From Promethearchaeota archaeon (GTDB taxonomy: Archaea > Asgardarchaeota > Lokiarchaeia > Sigyniarchaeales > SOKP01), in contig SDNY01000070.1 in assembly GCA_004524535.1 (NCBI GenBank), positions 1-19,179 on the forward strand: a stretch of 19,179 nt of DNA, in the 5' to 3' direction. This document shows positions 3,342-19,065 of the stretch, piece after piece. Numbering within the stretch: position 1 is the stretch's first letter; each line of letters starts with the position of its first letter. The notes under the pieces are model-generated. The model saw nothing but the letters and a program-made list of their open reading frames with translations, had not been told where the DNA came from and made no database searches. Made by a program: the position numbers and the translations under genes.

Positions 3342-3650
3342 ATGAGCATAAAGCTTAAGAACTTGTTAAAGCCAGAAGTTGTTGAGATACTTAATGACAT
3401 AAAAAATTACATTAGCAGAAAAGATTACGATCCGACAGAAATCCTGCGTTGTAAATTATGTGAGATAAAAATAGAAAAGCCATCCCTTCCGTTTATTATC
3501 TGGAGTAAGAATCAAGAATATTTCTGCCCATTTCATTTACAGTGCGCAATAAAACCAGAGTGTGTCGATATTTTTATTATTAATGAAATAGGAGGAAATA
3601 TCGGTTATACATATAATATTGATAACAGCAACAAAGGTGAACGCAATTGA
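3342..3650 (+). CDS. Hypothetical Zn-finger protein (CxxC...HxxC, PARP-type zinc-finger-like)
   Basis: 'RCKLCEIKIEK...FCPFHLQC' has the C-x2-C-x3-I-x-K...H-x2-C spacing of zf-PARP-like fingers. Confidence 0.55.
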   Translation: MSIKLKNLLKPEVVEILNDIKNYISRKDYDPTEILRCKLCEIKIEKPSLPFIIWSKNQEYFCPFHLQCAIKPECVDIFIINEIGGNIGYTYNIDNSNKGERN

Positions 3651-4015
3651 TAGGCGAGGCAAGTGATCAATGCTTAAGTGTTCCTGATCTGAAAAAGATT
3701 TATAGAATATTGGGTGAAGAAGCGATAAAGAAGGCATACAAGGAACCTGAAGTGTCCTTGAAGAGAATAAAGACAAAAATTAAAGACATTATATGCATTG
3801 AAAAAGCCGAAAAAAGATTAAAAGACTTACGTTTTAAGCCTTATTTAAATCTCGGAGATTATATTGAACTTGAATTAGTGCTACGGGGGACTTTAGATAG
3901 AGATAAATGGAGATTTCTAAAGTATTATAGATTAAAATCTATGGTGAGAAAAATTGAATCGTTTTTGAACTCAATTTTCAAAAAATTTGATTATGTTATT
4001 ATTGCAGATGAATAA
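3647..4015 (+). CDS. Hypothetical protein
   Basis: 122-aa ORF with TTG start in a TTGA overlap with the upstream stop, and AGGTGA at 3635-3640. Confidence 0.7.
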   Translation: MIGEASDQCLSVPDLKKIYRILGEEAIKKAYKEPEVSLKRIKTKIKDIICIEKAEKRLKDLRFKPYLNLGDYIELELVLRGTLDRDKWRFLKYYRLKSMVRKIESFLNSIFKKFDYVIIADE

Positions 4016-4205
4016 ATTGGAACCAGATGATTTTGATAAAAAGATAAAGATGATGAGTAAAATGTTTAAAAAATTAGCAAGAAAAGTAAAGAGGTTTAAT
4101 TTAATGGAGGGTAGCTCATCGCATAACCTTAAAACCTTTTCAATTTATTCCTTTTTACCCTTAGAGCTAAATTCCAGTTATATAAGAGGTGTTTATCTTG
4201 AATAG
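4008..4205 (+). CDS. Small hypothetical protein containing BHB element A (65 aa unspliced, 37 aa if spliced)
   Basis: ATG at 4008 overlaps the upstream stop and the ORF fills the gap between two genes. Its 3' half coincides with a structured RNA motif. Confidence 0.45.
   Translation: MNKLEPDDFDKKIKMMSKMFKKLARKVKRFNLMEGSSSHNLKTFSIYSFLPLELNSSYIRGVYLE
4074..4170 (+). other. BHB-like hairpin A; candidate 80-nt intron 4085..4164
   Basis: UUAGC|AAGA|AAA|GUAAAGAGG ... CCUUUUUAC|CCUU|AGA|GCUAA gives a 5-bp outer helix, 3 of 4 bp in the central helix, two 3-nt bulges and a 9-bp inner helix with one G-U pair. Confidence 0.55.
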
Positions 4206-4962
4206 GAAGAGGAATATTTTTAGAAATTTTTATGAAAACTGGAAGAAAATTATTGAAACTTGGTTAGAACTCAATTGGGTGTACCCTCATTGTTTTTCAA
4301 GAAAAATCTTAGTGTTTGATATTTGTGAAATAGGCTCGGATAAGAAAAAAGTGATCCAAGAAAGACTATATACAGGACGGTTTTATGAATGCAAAAAATG
4401 TAAAGAAAAATTTAAAGAATTTTCCCTACCGAGGAGACCTTGGTACGAGGTTCCAGTAGCATTTGTAGAAGAGTATAAGAACATACTTCTTACTCTAAGA
4501 AAGCGTACGGAGAAGGGATTTGATAAGAGTGATTATAAAATATTAGATCTTGTTAGGTATGAAGGGTTTGAGATAACGGCAGAAAGAGAATATCAATTGG
4601 ACGATAAATATATCTGGTTGTATGCAATCGTATATCCTAATATCGATAATTTTGATGACATGAAAGATCATATTGAGAAATTAAAAACATCATATTCAAT
4701 TGCCGAATATGTTTCAATAATTAATAGGGATGGTAAAAAATGTATTAAATATCCGGAAAAGATTCGAAACAGTAAAGTAGAGGATTCTATTATCAATAAA
4801 TTAGTTGAGGAGTATGGAAATAAGAGAACTCGAGATACGGATATCAATGATGTAGGGGAGATTATAGAATCAGAAGAATGGATACAAGCAAAGACTGAAA
4901 GAGCAAGGGAAATGATTGCCTCTTTTAAAATCCTTAATATAATTTGCCTTGAAGTATATTAA
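4198..4962 (+). CDS. IKYPE-domain paralogue 1 with N-terminal degenerate zinc ribbon
   Basis: Likely TTG start at 4198 after GAGGTG (4186-4191). Contains YPHC...ECKKC, and its C-terminal ~130 aa align with the next two ORFs. Confidence 0.8.
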   Translation: MNRKRNIFRNFYENWKKIIETWLELNWVYPHCFSRKILVFDICEIGSDKKKVIQERLYTGRFYECKKCKEKFKEFSLPRRPWYEVPVAFVEEYKNILLTLRKRTEKGFDKSDYKILDLVRYEGFEITAEREYQLDDKYIWLYAIVYPNIDNFDDMKDHIEKLKTSYSIAEYVSIINRDGKKCIKYPEKIRNSKVEDSIINKLVEEYGNKRTRDTDINDVGEIIESEEWIQAKTERAREMIASFKILNIICLEVY

Positions 4963-4978
4963 AAGGAGGAATATAAAC

Positions 4979-5497
4979 ATGAGTGGAAATAAAAAAAATA
5001 AAGTAAGCTACGCTCTTGAGAAAGAGGCAAGAATGTCAGGACAGGACGAGTATGAATCAATTGTACGGTTAAAAAGAGAAGCGGACATAAAGATAACTAG
5101 AAAAGAGATCTCAAAATTGAAAGGGCTTTATATGTATATAAAAGTAATTAGACCGTTTGATGAGAACTTTTTCAACATAATAAAAAAAAGATTCAAATCC
5201 TACTTTCCATTAATCGATTGTAGTAACTATGTGAAGAAGATTGAGAAAAAGGATAAATCATATATTAAATATCCAGAAGAGGTTCTAGTGTCGGAAGTAG
5301 ACAATGAGATTAATGTTGATCTGTCAGAAAAGCATGATATTTGCGATGATTATCTTTCAGAAGAAGAATGGGAAGAGATTCAAGAATCTAAGAGGTGGAA
5401 AGAGACTCAGAAACAGATTGCAAGTGAAATAATTGCAGATAGACTACTTGACGAAATTAATAGGCAAAAATTTGGAATTGATAAAACACAGAGGTAA
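4979..5497 (+). CDS. IKYPE-domain paralogue 2 (stand-alone domain)
   Basis: ATG at 4979 after AGGAGGA (4964-4970). Shares the Y-x-[WY]...P, YV..I....K..IKYPE, EWEEI..S..W and A.EIIA motifs. Confidence 0.8.
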   Translation: MSGNKKNKVSYALEKEARMSGQDEYESIVRLKREADIKITRKEISKLKGLYMYIKVIRPFDENFFNIIKKRFKSYFPLIDCSNYVKKIEKKDKSYIKYPEEVLVSEVDNEINVDLSEKHDICDDYLSEEEWEEIQESKRWKETQKQIASEIIADRLLDEINRQKFGIDKTQR

Positions 5498-5557
5498 TGG
5501 AAAATGTTGATCGAAAAAAGGAGTAATCAAGAAATTAAGGGATGAGGATAATAAATA

Positions 5558-6400
5558 TTGACTGAATTAGAATTAAATGAAAGAACAGAAATAAAAAATC
5601 AAGATAGGCTTGATGCCCTTTTATCTAGGCTTAATAAATGTGCAAATTTATTAGATCCGGATAAAGCTCAATTGATAATTTTTCTTGAGAAGGAATTTAA
5701 TATTAGAATAACAAAGGAGAAACTTCCCATACAATATCAATATATATGGATAATGGTATTAAGGCCTTTTACCATTAAAGTTTATAACTTGGTAAAAAAA
5801 CAGCTTGATCTTCGCAACTTTCCACATTTAATCAATAGTTATGTTATTAAATGTCAATTAGATGGAAAGGATTTTATTAAATATCCTGAGAAAATCGAGA
5901 TAAGCATAATTCAACATAAAATTTTGGATGATTTAACGAGGACCAGAATAGGCGGGAAATTAACAGAGACAGAATGGGAGGTAATAATGAGTACAGCCTC
6001 ATGGAAAATGGCTGAATCGCAAGTCGCTCGAGAACTAATTGCTTTAAATATTTATAATGAAATGAACAATAACCCTATGGAAGAGATTAAGATCAAACAC
6101 ATCAAATACTGGTTAGGTTTAGCAGAAATAATCAAATGGTATAAAACAACAGATCCATGTCATTATCTAAAGAATAGAACTGTCGATTCCCTGTATAACC
6201 TGTTAGAAAAGGCGAAGAATTCTTCTGATAAAATGATTCCCTTATTTACAATAATCAGTAGAATAAAGAAAAATATTGAAAAGGAATGGAAGAGAAATAA
6301 GGACCCCAATCCAAGTGTCAATTTCAGCTTAATCAGCAAACTAATTGATAATTTAGAGAATTTAAAAGAAAAGTTAGAAAGGAATAATATAAATGCATGA
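5558..6400 (+). CDS. IKYPE-domain paralogue 3 with C-terminal helical extension
   Basis: TTG start after GAGG. Same conserved domain (YIWIMVLRPF...YVIKCQLDGKDFIKYPE...EWEVIMSTASW...ARELIA) plus ~105 extra aa. Confidence 0.8.
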   Translation: MTELELNERTEIKNQDRLDALLSRLNKCANLLDPDKAQLIIFLEKEFNIRITKEKLPIQYQYIWIMVLRPFTIKVYNLVKKQLDLRNFPHLINSYVIKCQLDGKDFIKYPEKIEISIIQHKILDDLTRTRIGGKLTETEWEVIMSTASWKMAESQVARELIALNIYNEMNNNPMEEIKIKHIKYWLGLAEIIKWYKTTDPCHYLKNRTVDSLYNLLEKAKNSSDKMIPLFTIISRIKKNIEKEWKRNKDPNPSVNFSLISKLIDNLENLKEKLERNNINA

Positions 6401-6403
6401 AAA

Positions 6404-6501
6404 TTTAGCAAGGAATGTAAAGAGGATAAATATGAATTTGACATGGTGGGGAGTCAGAATAAATCTTTCTTATTCTATACCTCTTTACCCTTAGAACTAA
6501 A
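6404..6501 (+). other. BHB hairpin B; candidate 79-nt intron 6416..6494
   Basis: UUUAG-C|AAGG|AAU|GUAAAGAGG ... CCUCUUUAC|CCUU|AGA|A-CUAAA gives a perfect 4-bp central helix, two 3-nt bulges and a perfect 9-bp inner helix. There is further internal pairing (UUUGAC/GUCAGA). Confidence 0.65.
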
Positions 6502-6541
6502 AAACTCAAGAATTTAAAGACCATGGAAGTGTATATTCAAA

Positions 6542-6724
6542 ATGGAATATAATAATGAACATAAAGATAAGTACGAGTGCGAGCTTAAAATGGACGGAAT
6601 AAGCAAGGATCTTTCGATAACTGAGGATTTTGAATTATGGTTAGAAGAAATTCCAAAATTAATTTATCAATATTCTGATGGTAGTGAAGAAATCATCTTA
6701 AAAATTAAAAAAATAAGAAAATAA
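6542..6724 (+). CDS. Small hypothetical protein
   Basis: 60-aa ATG ORF co-oriented with the island, with GGAAGTG upstream. Confidence 0.6.
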   Translation: MEYNNEHKDKYECELKMDGISKDLSITEDFELWLEEIPKLIYQYSDGSEEIILKIKKIRK

Positions 6725-7874: not shown

Positions 7875-9020
7875 TTAACCTTTATATTCAGGATTCGGTT
7901 TCCACTCTGGCAATTTATTTTTTGAGTATAAAATCGATGCACCAATCCAAGAGATATTTTCCCGACCAGAAGGAGCAATAATATTTAAATTACCTCTAAT
8001 TTTCTCAGAAAAATGTTTAGTCAATTCAAATTTTAATCTTTCTTTTAATCCGGGGATTAAGCTTCCTCCCCCTGCTAAGATAATATGTGGTATAATTTCT
8101 TCCCAATCCTCTCTATTCCATGACTTAATTACTTTTACTATTGCTTCTGGAATTCCAAAATAATCTATGTGAATCAATCTTGGATTAAATAGAGGTTCTG
8201 ATAACATAAATCGCTCTGCATCTATTTTTAGATTTGAACCATCTGGAAAATTAATTTCTTGGTCATAATTTGTAAGCCCTTCTTTTATATTCTTCTTTTC
8301 CTCTTCAGGATTTAAAACAATTAGAGCAGTTTTCTCTTTAATTTCTTTTGCAAGCCATTTATCAAGATAATATTTTTTACTCGAACTTTTATTGGTCAAA
8401 ACCATATTTAAAAAATGGTTAGTTAAATCTTTGCCTGAAATGGGAAAGAGGTCTCTTGCCATTATGTTAGTAAATCCATGAAAAATTGTGGAGATATAAG
8501 TATGGAAATCCCCTATATTAATGATAACTCCAGTTTCTTTTTGTAACGCTTGCATAATTGCTTGACTTTCAGATAGAAACAATAAATAAGGAAAGTTAAA
8601 ATCTTGAAAAAAAATTTGTTCTAATTTAGTTTTCTCCAATTCCGTGGTAAAAAAAGGAGTTATTATTATAATTGGTTGTTTAAATTGATTTTCAGGTAAG
8701 ATGTCTAATTTTTGATAATAATGATGGAAAAACTTTGATAAAATATAATAATTATTTTCTTTCTTGAACTCATGAATTTTTAAAATATTTTGATATTTTA
8801 ATGCATCTATTCCATATAAATGTCTTTCAGTATTTTTTCCAAAAAAAAGATCCTCAAGGCCATCAATTACATCTGATTCAAATATATTATCTGTAGCATC
8901 CACATAAACGCTAGGTGCAATAATTTCTGGCAAATCACTGCCAGCCCATCCTAAACGAAAATTACAATTCCCAATATCTAAAATCAATGGTCTTAATTGT
9001 TTGTTATCAACTGTTAACAT
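7875..9020 (-). CDS. Divergent actin-family (actin-related) protein
   Basis: Phosphate-1 'LILDIGNCNFRLGWAGSDLPEIIAPS', phosphate-2 'TGVIINIGD', 'SGKDLT', 'EIKEK', 'FPDG...ERFMLSEPLFNP', adenosine 'IILAGGGSLIPGLKERL' and 'SWIGASIL'. 381 aa, collinear with eukaryotic actin. Confidence 0.95.
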   Translation of the reverse strand: MLTVDNKQLRPLILDIGNCNFRLGWAGSDLPEIIAPSVYVDATDNIFESDVIDGLEDLFFGKNTERHLYGIDALKYQNILKIHEFKKENNYYILSKFFHHYYQKLDILPENQFKQPIIIITPFFTTELEKTKLEQIFFQDFNFPYLLFLSESQAIMQALQKETGVIINIGDFHTYISTIFHGFTNIMARDLFPISGKDLTNHFLNMVLTNKSSSKKYYLDKWLAKEIKEKTALIVLNPEEEKKNIKEGLTNYDQEINFPDGSNLKIDAERFMLSEPLFNPRLIHIDYFGIPEAIVKVIKSWNREDWEEIIPHIILAGGGSLIPGLKERLKFELTKHFSEKIRGNLNIIAPSGRENISWIGASILYSKNKLPEWKPNPEYKG

Positions 9021-10491: not shown

Positions 10492-12792
10492 TTATTCTTT
10501 ATGAGACTTTAATTTTACTGTAAGATCTCTTGCTCGCTTAGAATACCACACCAATAAATCCCCTGCATCTTCTGGCTTAAAATACTCGCCACCGCATAGA
10601 GCAGCAGCACGAGCCATAAGTTCATCATTTGGGTTCCCCAAACCGACTATATAAATGACAACATTCATATTCTCAGAGAATTTTTTAACAGATTCGAAGA
10701 AGGCATCTCCATCTGTAGGCTCCCCATCGGTAAGGAGGACAATCATGGTTGGCTGGTTCGGGCTTATGCGCTCAAATTCAGTAAGCACATAATGAGCCTG
10801 TTCCATAGATTTCCCCATCGCGGTTGCTTGGCCATAGCTATTTCCTATACGATCAACAATCATTCTCGCAGCCTCCTCTAAAATTCCTTTTTTACCACTT
10901 GCGGAATCCATGTAAAAACCACCTCCAAAAGGCAGTATTTGAGCTTCATCAGCAAATCGAATAACAGAAACTTTTTCTCCAAAACCACGACCCACTTTTT
11001 CACTTAGAAATAGAACTGCTGCGAACGCTGCTGAGATCCTTCGTGGAATATTAATCCCATCCTTGAAGTTTTTCAAAAATTCTTGAATTTCTCTGGATTC
11101 CATTGCTGCTTTAATACCTTCTATAGCAGGGGCTATGTTCGTGACAAGCACATCTCTTGCCATCATGCTTCGGCTTATATCAATTATCAAAATAGCGTTA
11201 AATGGTATCAAACCAGTTGGTGAAAGGGATAATGTGGTATTTGGCGTAATTTGAGCTAAAATATCACCTGTTAAGTCTGGAACACAACTAATAATGGAAC
11301 AAGCAATATTTACAGCAGTCCATCTTAATTTAATTCCCTTGAAAATTATATAGTTTGAAAGCCAATCTTTTAAAGCTACTACGCTATCTCTTGCACTACT
11401 TATAATTTCCCACATGTTTTCACCAGAAATCGGTGAAACACCTAAAGAAACACTTTGTAAAGGAATTATTTGCCTTTGATTTTTTGATAATTTTATTTCA
11501 TAGCTTCCAATTCCAGAAGCTTCTAAAATTTCGCTATCTATTATAACTACATTGTCAGGGACAGTCTCTACAATAGTCACCTTACCCGCTCCAATCGCTC
11601 CAGTTAGCTCATCTTCAAATGCTACAACATCATTATTTTGAATTGAAATAGTATGTTGAGTTCTTGGACTTACTTGGCAATAACCATTTAAGTTTGGTTG
11701 TGACTGAACTTCTAATACTATTTCGGAAGCTTTTTGTATTGGTGGTTCCGTAGAATAGACTACGATTTGTTCGGCATGAATATTTGTATCTTCTTTCGTA
11801 TCTTTACTCATTTTTATCTCTGTATAGCCAATTTGTGCTTGAGTTATTCTCGCTGAACCCATTGCTCTCGTTAAAGGATCTTCCCATGCTATTAACATTC
11901 CGTGTCCAAGGCCTAATTGTTGTAAAACATCATAACTTAGTTGTACTCGCCCTCCTTCTAAGTTTTCATCTACAACTGGGGTTAGAATTATACCATTTTT
12001 CTGACTGCTCAGCATATTTATATCAATTCTATTAGGATAGGGATCTACCGTTTCCATTGGAGCAATAGTTCCTTGCGCCGGTGTTGGTTGAGATATTGAG
12101 GATTGTTGGGTATAAGAAGAAGGAGGAGCACTCATTTGAGGTGCTGGTGTTGGCTGTGGTGCTGGTGTTAATTGTGGTGCTGGTGTTAATTGTGGTGCTG
12201 GTGTTGGTTGTGGTGCTGGTGTTAATTGTGGTGCTGGTGTTAATTGTGGTGCTGGTGTTGGTTGTGGTGCTGGTTTTAATTGTGGAGTTGTTGCAGGCTG
12301 AGGAGCTGGAGTAGGTTGAGGCATTGTTGCAGGCTGAGGAGCTGGAGTTGGTTGAGGTATTGTTGCAGGCTGAGGAGCTGGAGTAAGTTGAGGAGTTGGG
12401 GTAAGTTGAGGAGTTGGAGTAGGCTGAGGAGTAGGGGTAGTCTGAGATCCAACGCCAGGTAAATGGGCTTGTGGTGCCTGAAGTGTCTGCTGAGCTGGTG
12501 TAGCTGGTTGTGGTGCTTGCGAAGCGAATGGAGTAGTTATACTTGGTTTCACAATTATTTCTATTCCGTTAAATTCTATTTTATCAATAATATTTTTAGA
12601 AATTTGCCCCGCGAAATCTAGGGCATTATCGGAAACCTCAGCAATAGCAATAGCACTTTTTCCATTATCCGGATTTAATATTTCCAATGAATCACCATTC
12701 GAAATACCTAATTTGGTAGCATTAGTTTGATTTATAATGGCACGATCTGCTGTGTCCTCTTTAATATCAACAAAAATTTTTATTTCTGGCAT
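10492..12792 (-). CDS. vWA-domain protein with repeated Cdc48-N-like beta-barrel modules and a Pro/Gln/Thr-rich linker
   Basis: C-terminal MIDAS: DISRS, T in GQATAMG, D in LLTDG. Three similar modules (A.KLGISNGDSLEILNP; LQQLGLGHGMLIAWEDP; HTISIQNNDVVAFEDE) resemble double-psi beta-barrels. Confidence 0.85.
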   Translation of the reverse strand: MPEIKIFVDIKEDTADRAIINQTNATKLGISNGDSLEILNPDNGKSAIAIAEVSDNALDFAGQISKNIIDKIEFNGIEIIVKPSITTPFASQAPQPATPAQQTLQAPQAHLPGVGSQTTPTPQPTPTPQLTPTPQLTPAPQPATIPQPTPAPQPATMPQPTPAPQPATTPQLKPAPQPTPAPQLTPAPQLTPAPQPTPAPQLTPAPQLTPAPQPTPAPQMSAPPSSYTQQSSISQPTPAQGTIAPMETVDPYPNRIDINMLSSQKNGIILTPVVDENLEGGRVQLSYDVLQQLGLGHGMLIAWEDPLTRAMGSARITQAQIGYTEIKMSKDTKEDTNIHAEQIVVYSTEPPIQKASEIVLEVQSQPNLNGYCQVSPRTQHTISIQNNDVVAFEDELTGAIGAGKVTIVETVPDNVVIIDSEILEASGIGSYEIKLSKNQRQIIPLQSVSLGVSPISGENMWEIISSARDSVVALKDWLSNYIIFKGIKLRWTAVNIACSIISCVPDLTGDILAQITPNTTLSLSPTGLIPFNAILIIDISRSMMARDVLVTNIAPAIEGIKAAMESREIQEFLKNFKDGINIPRRISAAFAAVLFLSEKVGRGFGEKVSVIRFADEAQILPFGGGFYMDSASGKKGILEEAARMIVDRIGNSYGQATAMGKSMEQAHYVLTEFERISPNQPTMIVLLTDGEPTDGDAFFESVKKFSENMNVVIYIVGLGNPNDELMARAAALCGGEYFKPEDAGDLLVWYSKRARDLTVKLKSHKE
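12142..12429 (-). repeat. In-frame 18-bp tandem repeat, 16 units encoding PQ[PL][TA][PT]x
   Basis: Directly visible, e.g. (tgtggtgctggtgttaat)n on the + strand, with higher-order 36-bp and 54-bp periodicities. Confidence 0.95.
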
Positions 12793-13023: not shown

Positions 13024-13442
13024 CTATAAAGGGGGATAGCGTTTACCTATCTCAGACGAATAGTAACGGAAAACGGTGACAACTTTCCCAAGATCCTGAA
13101 TTTTTCGGGATGCTCCCATAAGAAAAAAGCGACCGGCAGCGCTGAGTATAATGAATGCGTCTTCTCCTCTTAATACGACTTCTAGCATATTGTGAAAACC
13201 CAGTGTATCAATAGCATCTGAACCACTCTTCATGACAACGGCGCTTAAACTTGAAAATAAATCTGGGTCAACCTCATAGCTTGGAATGCAGCTAAAGGCC
13301 AATTGTAGCCCCTCCGTAGTCACTAGTGCGAGTGCTTCTAGTTCTGTATGTTCCGGTATATTGGCATATGTCAATATAATTCCGTTATGTTCCCCAAGAA
13401 GCTTGATAGACTTGTGGCCTCGTCGGGCGTTAAACTAACCAT
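13024..13442 (-). CDS. Roadblock/LC7 (MglB-like) protein, split by a 29-nt insert; join(13380..13442,13024..13350), 129 aa
   Basis: 'LEALALVTTEGL...DPDLFSSLSAVV...LG...LEVVLRGEDAFIILSAAGRFFLM...DLG' is a Roadblock pattern. The missing first helix (MVSLTPDEATSLSSFLGNITE) is encoded from ATG 13442 in another frame. Confidence 0.85.
13351..13379 (-). other. Candidate 29-nt BHB-like (relaxed) intron in the Roadblock gene
   Basis: mRNA ACGG|AA^U|UAUAUUG-ACAUAUGC-CAAUAUA|CCGG|AA^C. Cutting after the 2nd nt of each 3-nt bulge removes 29 nt, deletes an in-frame TGA and fuses the two frames. Confidence 0.6.
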
Positions 13443-14605: not shown

Positions 14606-16177
14606 TTAGCATTCTTTATTTAATAAATTCAGAATAGTTTCATTGATGTTAGATATCATATCCACAGCAGTAAAGCGAGTTCCGATTTTATTTCTACAAT
14701 ATTCTCCTATATAACCATTAAGAAAAGCAGCAGAACAAGCTGACTGAAATGGCTTGTTTTCTATCGCAAGAAAACTAGCACATAACCCTGCTAAAACATC
14801 TCCAGTTCCTCCAATGGACATTTCAGGGCAACCTGTTCTATTTATCTTCATAACTTTTCCATTACTGATATAATCAAACGGCCCCTTTACCAATAGAATA
14901 ACATCAAGCTTTTTTGCTAAATTAGTTATAATATCGCCTCGTTCTTTAATTTTATTATATGGTGGTAATTCTACACCTGATATAATTTTAAATTCTCCAT
15001 CGTGAGGGGTTAAAATAACAGGTTGACCTTCTAGGATATTTAAATGGTTCTTAACTAATTTCAAAGCGTCGGCATCAAGTACAAACGATTTTTTACTATT
15101 TTTCAACTTTTCTAATATTTTTACTAAAAGTTCTTCAGTTTCTTTTTTTTCTCCTAAGCCTGGTCCAATTAATATTGAGTTTGACCAATCAATCAAATGC
15201 GAGATCTCATCAAACGCATTAATATTTAGCCAATCGCCAGGGTTAGTTCTTACAATCATATTTGGGGAATAATTTCTAATTGCATCCCCTACAACTTCTG
15301 GCGTATAGGTAATAACTAAGTCAATTCCAAAATTAATGCCCGTTAAAGAAGAGTAAGCGGGAGCACCTGAGTAATTTTTAGATCCTCCTACAACTAAAAT
15401 TCTCCCATACTGGCCTTTATGGGTGTCAACTTTTCTAACTTTTAAATTTGAAATTAGATCTCCCCTACCTATAAATAAGCTGGCCTCTAGAGGAATTCCT
15501 ATGGATTTCACTATTATTTCATTAATGAATTTACTATTTCTTTTCATTCCTCTCTTAATTCGATGGAATGTTATCACTAAATCCGATTTAACTGCTTTAT
15601 CTAAAACTTTACCACTGTTAGGATCTAATCCGGAAGGGACATCAATTGAAACAATTTTAATATTATCTTCTTCTCTTAGAGCGTTAATCATTTCTATTGC
15701 TGAGGAGATTGGTTCTCTAATTTTACCTATTATTCCAGTTCCTAACAAACCATCTATAATTAAATTCAATCCTTTTGCATCCTTAATTTGTGTATCAATT
15801 TCTGTTAATTCACTTGAGTCTCTTATAATTTTAATTTGTATTGAATGATTGAGATGTTTTGAAATTATCTCCCAATTTAGTTTTGCCTCCTGGGTTCTTA
15901 TCTTGTCTGGTAATCCAATGAGAATTACTAACACTTTTATTCCAAAAGAGGATAAATGACGAGCGACTACAAATCCGTCGCCTCCATTATTTCCTGTACC
16001 GCAAAAGATAGAAACTTTAGAATTATCATCCAGATTATATCTTTTGATGATTTCAATTGCGAAAGAATAACCAGCACACTCCATTAAATGACTTTTTGGG
16101 ATTCCTAACCACTCAGAGTTATTATCCAAAATCGCCATTTCTTCAGATGATATTTTTTCCGAACTTATATGCTCCAT
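14606..16177 (-). CDS. nnr: Bifunctional NAD(P)H-hydrate epimerase/dehydratase (YjeF_N + YjeF_C)
   Basis: Motifs LMECAG, CGTGNNGGDG, DGLLGTG, SIDVPSG, HKGQYG, GGSKNYSGAP, GPGLG, LDADAL, LTPHDGEF, GGTGDVLAG. Confidence 0.97.
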   Translation of the reverse strand: MEHISSEKISSEEMAILDNNSEWLGIPKSHLMECAGYSFAIEIIKRYNLDDNSKVSIFCGTGNNGGDGFVVARHLSSFGIKVLVILIGLPDKIRTQEAKLNWEIISKHLNHSIQIKIIRDSSELTEIDTQIKDAKGLNLIIDGLLGTGIIGKIREPISSAIEMINALREEDNIKIVSIDVPSGLDPNSGKVLDKAVKSDLVITFHRIKRGMKRNSKFINEIIVKSIGIPLEASLFIGRGDLISNLKVRKVDTHKGQYGRILVVGGSKNYSGAPAYSSLTGINFGIDLVITYTPEVVGDAIRNYSPNMIVRTNPGDWLNINAFDEISHLIDWSNSILIGPGLGEKKETEELLVKILEKLKNSKKSFVLDADALKLVKNHLNILEGQPVILTPHDGEFKIISGVELPPYNKIKERGDIITNLAKKLDVILLVKGPFDYISNGKVMKINRTGCPEMSIGGTGDVLAGLCASFLAIENKPFQSACSAAFLNGYIGEYCRNKIGTRFTAVDMISNINETILNLLNKEC

Positions 16178-16337
16178 AATAATTAATCTTAGAATGTTTT
16201 ATTAAAAAATATTTATGAATTCATTAAAAGAACAAACAAGTTTTTTAAAAAATGGACTTTTATAGAAATATTTAAATATATAAAATAGATATTTACTTAC
16301 CAAAAATTTTAAAAAAAAATCCAACGTGAAAAAAATT

Positions 16338-17276
16338 ATGAAATATTCTAAAATAATATTATTTGGACTATTGGTAATAACTCTTCTAATACCTTTTGCT
16401 TCTATCGCTCATGCTGCGAAAACACCAGGCTACGTAGGTATCAAAGAAGGTCAAACTTATACTTGGACTACTGAATTCGATGCGGGACCCTTGGAAGATT
16501 ATTATGAAGATATAGGGGAAACTAAAGAAGAAGCTGAAGAAGACGCATGGAATGTGATGGAATCGCGGGAATGGGAAGAAGAGGTTGTTGAATGGAAATT
16601 AACCATTCAGGAAATAAGAAAGGAAGATGACTTATATTTTGTGGATCCAGATGAATCTTTAGCAGATGAGTATGAATATGTGAAATACGTTTATTCTTTA
16701 AAAGAATTGGATGGTGATGTTTGGCATTGGAGAACAATAGATACGTACCAGACAGCAAAGATTTTTGAACCAGACGAAGAATTATGGGGAAAAGAATTCA
16801 TGAGTTTTATTTTTGGTGTTTCTACATTTAATCCTTATCGAGCAGACCTCAGTTATCCCTCTTTAGTTGTCGCTAAGAATCTTGATTGGGATGAGGTAGC
16901 ACGATGGATGGAAAAACCTCTTTACCCTCGTGAGAAAGATTATTATAAGGCGAAGGAAATAAAGATACAACATTTTCTAGATAAAAAACAAGTTGGTCTT
17001 TATACAGAACTGGATACCAGCTATGGAAATCCTCAATATGAAAAAGATATTGACACATTTGAATCAATTTCCAAATATAATGATGATGGAATTCTTTATT
17101 ACTATGAAGTTACTTATGATGGAGATATAATCGCTAAATTTGAGTTAAAAGGAATGATGGGAAATTATGTGTATATTTACGAAAACTGGTGGTGGATGGC
17201 TTTAGTAGCTGGAGCGGCGGTTGTAGGAGTTATAATTCTTATCGTAGTTATAATTAAATTAAAAAAACGGAAATAA
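16338..17276 (+). CDS. Acidic secreted, C-terminally membrane-anchored surface protein, copy 1
   Basis: Signal peptide MKYSKIILFGLLVITLLIPFASIAHA (ATG 16338; in-frame GTG at 16326), 'YVGIKEGQTYTW' at the mature N-terminus, and a C-terminal TM helix plus KLKKRK. Confidence 0.9.
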   Translation: MKYSKIILFGLLVITLLIPFASIAHAAKTPGYVGIKEGQTYTWTTEFDAGPLEDYYEDIGETKEEAEEDAWNVMESREWEEEVVEWKLTIQEIRKEDDLYFVDPDESLADEYEYVKYVYSLKELDGDVWHWRTIDTYQTAKIFEPDEELWGKEFMSFIFGVSTFNPYRADLSYPSLVVAKNLDWDEVARWMEKPLYPREKDYYKAKEIKIQHFLDKKQVGLYTELDTSYGNPQYEKDIDTFESISKYNDDGILYYYEVTYDGDIIAKFELKGMMGNYVYIYENWWWMALVAGAAVVGVIILIVVIIKLKKRK

Positions 17277-17603
17277 TCACAAAGACCTCTAATTTTTAAA
17301 ATCTTTTTTTTTTGATATTATTTATTTTCAAGAAATAAATCAATTAATTTGCCTTCTAAAAAGGCAATCTTAGACTGAGTTTATCATCAACAAATATAAA
17401 ATTATCCATCAATTCGATTCCAATATTTAGATATGATTCATAATAATTAATCTTAGAAATTTGTATTAAAAAATATTTATGAATTCGTCAAAAAAACAAC
17501 CAAGTTTTCTAAAAAAATGGACTTTTATGGAAATATTTAAATTTATGAGTATAAATCTTTAATTAACAAAGAATTTAAAAAAAAATCCAACGTGAAAAAA
17601 ATT

Positions 17604-18545
17604 ATGAAATATTCTAAAATAATATTATTTGGATTATTGGTAATAACACTTCTAATACCATTTGCTTCCATCGCTCATGCTGCGAAAACACCAGGTTATG
17701 TGGGTATTAAAGAAGGTCAAACTTATACTTGGACTACTGAATTTGACCAAGGTCCATTGGAAGATTATTATGAAGATAGAGGGAAAACTAAAGAAGAAGC
17801 TGAGGAGGATGCATGGGATGACATGGAGGATTTTGAATGGGAAGAAGAGGTTGTTGAATGGAAATTGAGCATCCATGAGATAAGAGATGAAGACGAAATT
17901 TTTATAGAGGGATATCCATTTATAACTTTATCTGACGATTACGATTTTGTAAAATATGTCTATTCTCTAAAGGAATTAGATGGTGATGTTTGGTATTGGA
18001 GACCAATAGATACGTACCAGACAGCAAAGATTTTTGAACCAGATGAAGAACTATGGGGAAAAACACAAACAAGTTTTAGATACGGAATTTCTATTGTTAA
18101 TACTCCACGATCAGATCTTTCATATCCTGCTATGATGGTAGCTAAGAATTTAGACTGGGATGAAGTCGCAAGATGGATGGAAAAACCTTATACTCCTGCC
18201 CAAAAGGAGTACAGGGAAGCCAATGAAATAAAAATTCAGTATTTTCTTGGTAAAAAACAAGTCGGGATTTATACAGAATGGGATCCTTCTTTGTATTATC
18301 CTCAATATGAAAAAGATCTTGGCACATTTGAATCTATTTCTAAATATAATGATGATGGAATCCTTTATTACTATGAATATACTTATGATGGAGATATAAT
18401 CGCTAAATTGGAATTAAAAGGATATCAGGGTAATTACGTTTATATCTTCGAAAACTGGTGGTGGATGGTTTTAGTAGCTGGAGCGGCGGTTGTAGGAGTT
18501 ATAATTCTTATCGTAGTTATAATTAAATTAAAAAAACGGAAATAA
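17604..18545 (+). CDS. Acidic secreted, C-terminally membrane-anchored surface protein, copy 2
   Basis: Paralogue of 16338..17276 with identical signal peptide and near-identical anchor (ATG 17604; in-frame GTG at 17592). Confidence 0.9.
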   Translation: MKYSKIILFGLLVITLLIPFASIAHAAKTPGYVGIKEGQTYTWTTEFDQGPLEDYYEDRGKTKEEAEEDAWDDMEDFEWEEEVVEWKLSIHEIRDEDEIFIEGYPFITLSDDYDFVKYVYSLKELDGDVWYWRPIDTYQTAKIFEPDEELWGKTQTSFRYGISIVNTPRSDLSYPAMMVAKNLDWDEVARWMEKPYTPAQKEYREANEIKIQYFLGKKQVGIYTEWDPSLYYPQYEKDLGTFESISKYNDDGILYYYEYTYDGDIIAKLELKGYQGNYVYIFENWWWMVLVAGAAVVGVIILIVVIIKLKKRK

Positions 18546-19065
18546 TCAAAAAGAGACATATTTAGTCCCTATAATTTTTAAAATCTTTTTTTTTTTATTT
18601 TATTTTCAAGGAATAAATCAATTAATTTGCCTTCTAAAAAAGCAATCTTAGAGTGAGTTTATCATCAACAAATATAAAATGATCTACCAATTCGATTCTA
18701 TTATTTAGATATGATTCATTATTCATGAATCATGAATTATGAAATAATTAGGACTTAGAAATAAAAAACTTTTTAGGTTGTTTCTCTAAAAGAAGTGTGA
18801 TATTTAAAATTAACAAAAATTCTTAAGCACACCAAATAATTCTTTAAAACCACCTATTTCAAATTCAGAACAGAAAGGGATTTTCGATTCTCTCCTTACT
18901 AATCGAATTTTGATTAGAACTAAGTATTTAAATTAATATTGATGTGAAAAATTTTATACTTTTTTTTTATCCAAGTATTTGACTAAAGAAAAGTAAAAAA
19001 AAATTATTTCTTCAATTTTTTATGATAATAAGAGTATGATCATTAATTGATAGTAAATTAAATAC

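Follow-up and report, generated by a model that had tools for sequence, protein, structure and literature searches.

A bulge-helix-bulge (BHB) hairpin occurs twice in a protein-coding operon of an Asgard archaeon, and, judged by comparison with related sequences, it is a real BHB-shaped structure that is maintained by selection through compensatory changes in two other genomes. The DNA analysed here, called the window throughout, is a stretch of 19,179 nt from a genome of 30% G+C, and it has an Asgard-type gene content, including an actin gene (7875-9020) and a Roadblock gene (13024-13374). Selection on the stem at the RNA level, acting on the strand of the genes, is well supported by the sequences compared; coding of a small protein by the same bases is likely in three of the elements (copy A, L051, and L047), and coding by itself does not explain the stem. 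Archaeal EndA reads shape rather than sequence and recognises its motif regardless of context, and, given that selection keeps exactly that shape, a cleavage site is the simplest reading of the stem. Our tentative reading, which we rate slightly short of an even chance, is that of a selected BHB element in the operon mRNA that is probably cut by EndA, among whose substrates it would be placed on shape and covariation alone. The main rival to this reading is a structural stem that is left uncut.

With a covariation-supported BHB in Asgard-type coding operons, the splicing or processing of mRNA by proteins would reach into the lineage closest to the eukaryotes. At about 100 nt, and with one bulge-less natural variant next to five others, the element would also be a handy system for testing the competition between translation and EndA cleavage, and, if the stem is uncut, it is still a clear case in which an RNA structure and small-protein coding constrain the same bases.

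Two copies of the hairpin in one run of genes

The initial annotation had described the hairpin at 6404-6501 (copy B; Table 1) as a near-canonical BHB in an apparent intergenic gap of an island operon, present in two copies and with no tRNA or rRNA adjacent. Every one of the elements that it named (outer helix, mismatch, central helix, bulges, and inner helix) is present in the sequence, and its arithmetic is right both for the predicted excised piece, 6416-6494 (79 nt), and for the ORF that excision would leave from the ATG at 6393, with 26 residues and a stop ending at 6552, overlapping the ATG at 6542. The bulges lie 3' of each strand of the central helix, which we take, from tRNA-intron geometry, to be the orientation that EndA cuts, and the cuts are placed after the second nucleotide of each bulge, in keeping with the EndA cutting rules. 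Copy B has the two 3-nt bulges, the exactly 4 bp between them, and the flanking helices; because its outer helix starts only after the C.A mismatch that abuts the 3' bulge, it is a relaxed rather than a strict BHB motif. As for the neighbourhood, ARAGORN found 0 tRNAs and Rfam 0 gathering-level matches in the window, in agreement with what had been claimed.

The second copy does exist, at 4074-4170 (copy A), and the two are the sole copies in the 3.66-Mb genome, both of them within the window. Copy A has A.C in place of its fourth central pair, so that both window copies are mismatched beside one bulge (A.C in the central helix of A, C.A at the start of the outer helix of B), and the predicted excised part is 4085-4164 (80 nt), the sequence of which is unconserved between A and B. 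The supposed intergenic gap, in turn, has to be given up: the copy B region is a frameshifted paralogue of the small ORF of copy A. The 5' arm consists of the codons of a KLARKVKR-like basic motif and the 3' arm of LPLEL-like codons, which in copy B stand in another frame, and since the arms of B are 54 nt apart and not 55, its ORF stops at 6494. Copy B is a frameshifted copy that kept the RNA element and not the ORF reading through it.

The two copies are separated by three paralogous genes in tandem, members of an unannotated family, relatives of which adjoin all the related loci described below. This flanking family is present in 16 of the 160 genomes of the class, the source genome included, and in other genera it stands near the same actin and NIF3/ArsR genes; for this reason, the stretch is better described as a variable part of the chromosome than as an obvious island, contrary to the earlier wording. 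None of the ORFs in 3342-6724 could be assigned to a family by Pfam, PHROGs, or PADLOC, nor could the operon genes of genome G101.

Table 1. Positions of the two hairpin copies, the neighbouring genes, and the related elements; coordinates are those of the window, except for the last four rows.
Feature	Position	Strand	Description	Basis
Copy A small ORF	4050-4205	+	Intact, 51 codons, holds the whole stem	65-aa gene-caller form is the only database match
Copy A 5' arm	4074-4094	+	Outer 4074-4078, central 4079-4082, bulge AAA 4083-4085, inner 4086-4094	
Copy A 3' arm	4150-4170	+	Inner 4150-4158, central 4159-4162, bulge AGA 4163-4165, outer 4166-4170	
Tandem paralogues of the flanking family	4189-4962, 4949-5497, 5558-6400	+	Three genes between copies A and B	
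Copy B ORF	6393-6494	+	33 codons; ATG overlaps the stop of the upstream gene; basic N-terminal motif, then out of frame	
Copy B outer helix	6404-6408 / 6497-6501	+	UUUAG / CUAAA	Sequence, folding, register table
Copy B mismatch	6409 / 6496	+	C against A, next to the 3' bulge	
Copy B central helix	6410-6413 / 6489-6492	+	AAGG / CCUU, 4 bp	
Copy B 5' bulge	6414-6416	+	AAU; predicted cut 6415/6416	
Copy B inner helix	6417-6425 / 6480-6488	+	Nine Watson-Crick pairs	
Copy B interior	6426-6479	+	54 nt, one base fewer than copy A; sequence poorly conserved against A	
Copy B 3' bulge	6493-6495	+	AGA; predicted cut 6494/6495	
Copy B second frame	6461-6517	+	Peptide of the 3' arm region can be aligned to the copy A protein, in its C-terminal part	Translation, repeat search
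ORF 3' of copy B	6542-6724	+	60 codons; last ORF of the + strand gene run; no family match	
L051	G101:C116 5438-5615		Directly downstream of a family gene	Found by R1
L047	G101:C68		71-codon ORF, same operon position as L051	Found by protein profile
L058	G101:C82 25504-25683		0.8-1.4 kb upstream of a family gene	Found by R2
L045	G018:C16 28622-28792		0.8-1.4 kb upstream of a family gene	Found by R2

In its overall folding energy, the hairpin is not unusual. When copy B was folded against shuffled controls, as the initial annotation had suggested, it showed no marked stability (z -1.09; 26 of 200 shuffles equally stable). RNAfold recovers the helices, its centroid containing all three and its minimum free energy (MFE) structure the central and inner ones; the folding energy of copy A is likewise ordinary (z -1.50). 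The specific geometry, by contrast, is rare in the descriptor search that had also been suggested: a strict BHB descriptor, in which the 4 bp of the central helix and no fewer than 9 pairs of the inner helix had to be Watson-Crick, 5 or more of the 6 outer positions had to pair, and the whole had to span 24-220 nt, returned 7 sites in the 3.66-Mb genome, counting both strands, versus 1 in Markov-1 sequence of equal total length, that is, about 0.04 versus 0.005 per window. Most of the other 6 sites in the genome consist of A/U only. With G-U pairs permitted at the same thresholds, there are 514 matches genome-wide, and loose BHB look-alikes are, therefore, common; a single such site among many scanned windows is weak evidence alone, and the case consequently rests on the comparison with relatives.

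Relatives in two other genomes and the shape that most of them share

Two covariance models were used, R1 built from copies A and B, and R2 from copy B and L051. The two-copy model, an idea of the initial annotation, turned out to be productive, since R1 matched L051. This element lies within an ORF of 73 codons, to which a zinc-finger-like ORF of 47 codons is coupled. The family comprises six elements in three Asgard-type genomes, namely, A and B in the source genome, L051, L058, and L047 in genome G101, and L045 in genome G018. In whole-genome scans with R2, no plus-strand non-self match in G101 or G018 falls outside these relatives, and all such matches adjoin genes of the flanking family; scans of three further genomes (G117, G072, and G073) gave no plus-strand non-self matches. 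Across 134 genomes, R1 found nothing convincing and R2 found known members alone, with strict filters that missed A, L058, and L045.

Other kinds of search added no member. A DNA search with 6380-6560 against 60 related genomes returned short A/T-rich matches only (the best non-self match being of 41 nt, E 2e-4); nhmmer with copies A and B found nothing further in the genome or in loci L021-L040; and a two-arm pattern had 0 matches in viral contigs and 4 in genome contigs, all of these in unrelated bacteria with dissimilar flanks, where a rough estimate lets about a handful be expected. At the protein level, a word-indexed search with A and L051 returned the window's own protein alone, a profile search over the ORFs of 17 related loci returned A, L051, and L047 alone, and the L051/L047 protein alignment gave no loci in a viral scan and, in a metagenome scan, 2 unrelated G+C-rich loci with one short peptide pattern in common. 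An E-value-threshold Rfam scan of two further loci (L062 and L072) showed nothing relevant.

Several observations made along with these searches are given here in their own right. The 47-codon ORF that precedes the small ORF in G101 (5275-5418 on the plus strand at L051, and about 6135-5995 on the minus strand at L047) has a zinc-finger-like C-x2-C ... H-x4-HH pattern and a stop that overlaps or abuts the ATG of the small ORF, and downstream of the small ORF lies another conserved one, about 96 codons long. Genus g2 (L074, L075, L077, L078, and others) has a conserved 69-codon hydrophobic ORF, found in at least 7 genomes, with weak profile matches (E 0.001-0.02) to the small-protein alignment; it lacks the arm motifs and is probably not a relative. 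Finally, an intergenic hairpin between a gene for a 498-aa membrane protein and a small GTPase-like gene (L049 4426-4526, minus strand, G072:C69) is built as helix, AAA bulge, 4-bp helix, AGA bulge, and helix, the same layout with unrelated helix sequences, and has a score of 32.4 bits with R1 and a z of -4.15 (0 of 200 shuffles). By blastn, it is absent from all the others of the 54 genomes of its genus, and it may be another BHB-type site or a chance match of the model.

Within the family, the elements were compared in a register table that is ungapped and anchored on the codon alignment. Five of the six elements, namely, A, B, L051, L058, and L045, retain the 3-4-3 geometry, whose conservation in homologues had been raised in the initial annotation; this fraction is biased because L051, L058, and L045 were found with models rewarding this very structure. 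In these five elements, the outer helix has 5 positions with 4-5 pairs, the bulges are of 3 nt (in the 5' arm AAA or AAU, in the 3' arm AGA or UAA), the inner helix has at least 8 pairs, and the central helix has 4 positions with 3 pairs in A and 4 in each of the others, B, L051, L058, and L045, which, hence, have the exact 3-4-3 with a full 4-bp central helix. The predicted excised lengths are 80 nt in A, 79 in B, 152 in L051, 154 in L058, and 146 in L045. The MFE structures of the three relatives show the bulge-helix-bulge, with a z of -4.02 for L051 and -4.00 for L058 (0 of 200 shuffles in each case) and of -2.00 for L045 (3 of 200).

Compensatory changes preserve this geometry. Pairs have changed on both sides in the outer helix (o2, A-U/G-C; o4, C-G/U-A/A-U), in the central helix (c0, A-U/U-A/G.U), and in the inner helix (i2, i4, i6, i7, and i8). 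In the model-fitted alignment, 94.9% of 99 cells are paired, 9 of 18 pairs have both of their bases changed, and not one of 500 shuffles attains any of the five pair-count measures, counts which overstate the support because the alignment is itself fitted to the structure, three members came in via structure-aware models, and the six sequences are interrelated. The covariation score is 0.456, versus at most 0.185 with the partners slid by 1-3 columns.

The sixth element, L047, is the least biased member, given that its protein led to it. The outer and central helices are missing from it (1/4 and 3/5 positions paired), and its inner stem, in the same register, is longer than the others, with 16/17 pairs, ten of them perfect. 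What is common to all six is, therefore, the stem and not the bulge-helix-bulge.

Coding, RNA-level selection, and rival explanations

We suggest keeping in mind that the arms also encode the most conserved peptide motifs, and that part of their pairing is cheap, because purine-rich K/R codons face pyrimidine-rich F/L/P codons. In the arm test, the amino acids were kept fixed, the codons were resampled from the usage of the genome, and the energies of the arm-arm duplexes were compared: the real duplexes have -21.7 versus -11.7 +/- 3.0 kcal/mol resampled in copy A, -19.4 versus -8.9 +/- 2.9 in copy B, -26.4 versus -13.3 +/- 3.3 in L051, and -23.2 versus -11.1 +/- 2.7 in L047. The arms of all four thus pair 10-13 kcal/mol beyond expectation (z -3.3 to -4.5), with a fraction of 0.0005-0.0025 of the resamples as stable as the real duplex, while 110 random segment pairs from genes of the same genome gave a mean z of 0.14 and a minimum of -2.78, none of them at or below -3. 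Folding of the whole ORF against synonymous resampling was non-discriminating (z +0.09 for A, -3.56 for L051, and -1.84 for L047), two of the four control genes being at about -2 (-1.18, -1.89, +0.16, and -2.22).

The reading frame is intact in A, L051, and L047 and broken in B and L058, and in L045 it is open, with no ATG, GTG, or well-placed TTG start. Relative to A, the arm spacing differs by 72 nt in L051 and by 66 nt in L047 and L045, multiples of three in each case, and it is these open frames and spacings, together with starts coupled to the upstream gene, that make coding likely in A, L051, and L047. In-frame coding alone would also hold the bulges at 3 nt. L058 has its frame broken like that of B and yet shows three compensated outer and central pairs, and L045 and L058 share an identical 17-nt interior motif in different reading frames.

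One could, accordingly, propose that a selected long-range stem exists in the mRNA and that EndA leaves it uncut, the bulges being an inherited accident kept by the in-frame arms; such a stem might stabilise the transcript, bind a protein, or gate the translation of the small ORF. This is a serious possibility, even if we find it rather doubtful on the whole. It agrees well with the inner stem being the sole feature common to all six elements, with L047 having strengthened it without the remainder, with arms that are in-frame codons in A, L051, L047, and probably L045, and with the lack of a conserved exon product; moreover, an ATG that overlaps or abuts the stop of the upstream gene stands just a few codons ahead of each element, and ribosomes should for this reason melt the 5' arm. 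On the other hand, an uncut stem leaves it unexplained why compensatory changes (o2, o4, and c0) also hold the 4-bp central and 5-bp outer helices and why the geometry persists in B and L058 despite their broken frames, and, from general EndA biochemistry, a stably formed motif is hard to shield from the enzyme.

Two other rivals were weighed. According to one of them, A is an ordinary small protein gene and B a decaying pseudogene, the complementarity being a codon by-product of a K/R-rich N-terminus and a Phe/Leu/Pro-rich C-terminus. This is disfavoured, and we hold it to be improbable, given that fixed-amino-acid resamples pair equally well in 0.05-0.25% of cases with 0 of 110 controls at a z of -3, that L047, the member found through its protein, gives the strongest value (z about -4.5), that 9 of 18 pairs changed on both sides, and that the 17-nt motif of L045 and L058 stands in different frames, even though the occurrence of open frames 51-73 codons long at a G+C content of 30%, arm spacings differing by multiples of three (72 and 66 nt), a peptide similarity reaching beyond the helices, and the frequency of loose BHB look-alikes with G-U all speak in its favour. 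A role at the DNA level, in which the arms would be the terminal inverted repeats of a miniature mobile element or would serve in recombination or binding, seems to us very improbable indeed. The arms can certainly be read as 21-nt imperfect inverted repeats bracketing 54-127 nt, there are two copies in the source genome and three in G101, and the copies stand either upstream or downstream of the family gene; nevertheless, the source genome has two copies alone in 3.66 Mb instead of many dispersed ones, the whole-genome scans of G101 and G018 found no copy away from the gene family, viral contigs gave no match, the 7 G.U versus 3 A.C in the five BHB-bearing members favour an RNA of the + strand, the reverse strand of A receives 26 bits from the model, as against 119, and no target-site duplications were noticed in passing.

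Predicted processing and known systems

Coming back to the reading of an EndA-cut element, the genome encodes enzymes of the required kind, with two tRNA_int_endo (PF01974) matches above the cut-off (C100:31106-31336 and C84:30615-30863) and one RtcB (PF01139) match (C101:22508-23815). The Asgard EndA is an (alpha-beta)2 enzyme with a loop that is associated with relaxed substrates, according to PMC5829648. We propose a small family of RNA elements on Asgard-type operon mRNAs, in which a long-range stem would close off 79-154 nt and overlap a small ORF or its remnants. The stem would fold when the small ORF is untranslated; a broad-specificity (alpha-beta)2 EndA would then cut both bulges, in copy B at 6415/6416 and 6494/6495, and RtcB would ligate the flanks and probably circularise the excised piece. 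The effect would likely be regulatory, either through removal of the small-ORF body together with a reshaped junction before the next gene, or through the release of a small RNA. Speaking against a cut are the shape of L047, the ORFs predicted after excision, none of which is conserved, an interior that differs between A and B, the bulge-side mismatch of either window copy, and the small number of genomes, three, with the element.

The ORFs predicted after excision have 23 aa in A, 26 aa in B, and 33 aa in L051, with unrelated tails. The earlier suggestion that splicing could establish translational coupling stands for copy B alone, where excision would repair it, and fails as a general route, since the unspliced ORFs of A and L051 already end right at the following start. 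A post-excision hairpin as a ribosome-binding site was considered and dropped, being 24-47 nt from the next starts, programmed ribosome hopping across the interior was likewise dropped as an idea, and no C/D-box or K-turn features were seen by eye in the excised part.

Among known systems, the archaeal hBHBh' motifs of tRNA introns and rRNA processing stems resemble the element in their two 3-nt bulges, one per strand and each following its half of the 4-bp helix on the 3' side, and in the helices to both sides, and the host here likewise encodes EndA (two subunits) and RtcB; they differ in that the element lies in a protein-coding operon with no tRNA or rRNA nearby and is a candidate substrate. 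Long-range 5'-3' pairings gate translation in small-ORF mRNAs such as the hok mRNA and in the MS2 coat-replicase interaction. These resemble the present element in having a codon-made stem opened by ribosomes from a coupled upstream gene, and they differ in that they mask a ribosome-binding site, whereas the stem here masks no start region and has EndA geometry.

The BHB intron in the crenarchaeal cbf5 pre-mRNA (Watanabe 2002; Yokobori 2009; PMC2738675, PMC7714728) also lies inside the coding part of an mRNA; its removal restores a conserved long ORF, in contrast to the present case, in which excision would destroy or shorten a small ORF and leave dissimilar tails. Outside tRNA and rRNA, the EndA-processed BHB sites named in the available part of PMC7714728 are cbf5 of Crenarchaeota and the 5' UTR of HVO_1309. 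The intron in this Haloferax volcanii 5' UTR, as described there, is similarly a short piece from a non-tRNA transcript (46 nt versus 79-154 nt here), with a proposed regulatory role and a circular excised piece, which here is a prediction; unlike our element, which overlaps an ORF and is known by comparison alone, it lies in an untranslated leader and is documented by circRNA-seq and in vitro cleavage (PMC7714728). Our searches of the literature on BHB with Asgard and on BHB with mRNA turned up no such element in Asgard operons, and one may still be in print.

Depending on the copy, the element is upstream or downstream of the one patchy gene family, and certain copies are ORF-less, which is why it could also be conceived as a spreading intron. 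We mention, as an unlikely though coherent combination, a spreading, protein-independent, intron-like BHB module that, when unspliced, encodes a small basic protein and that, when the coupled upstream translation stops, would fold and be excised by EndA and RtcB as a circular RNA, thus acting as a translation-sensing switch; in two of the relatives, the circle would include the 17-nt motif, which also forms the core of a widespread free-standing small RNA.

That core, GGATTTTTGTCTTTTGG, is also found, apart from its presence inside L045 and L058, in a free-standing element of about 135 nt in which it is invariant, with a 10-bp terminal stem, a co-varying hairpin, and a T-run. There are five copies of this element in the source genome (C162:8919-9064, C70:6983-7092, C7:44237-44343, and C157:20716-20820 on the plus strand, and C123:47259-47364 on the minus strand) and further ones at L102-L120, and the core has blastn matches in 61 of the 134 genomes of the family, belonging to 9 of 13 genera. 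The element is not a tRNA (ARAGORN), has no Rfam match, and has varied neighbour genes; the AUUUUUG of its core, as we see it, resembles an Sm-protein site. Around this widespread 17-mer element, the descriptor found no BHB flanks in a consistent position, and R2 gave 0 hits.

Two further features of the window were noted in passing. A tandem duplication of about 1.27 kb (16167-17444 and 17431-18722; 75-92% nucleotide identity, upstream regions included) carries ORFs of 316/317 codons at 16326-17276 and 17592-18545, neither of which matches Pfam. At 12082-12459, about 16-20 tandem 18-nt repeats of the GTGCTGGTGTT type form a hexapeptide block within a 766-codon von Willebrand A-domain gene on the minus strand.
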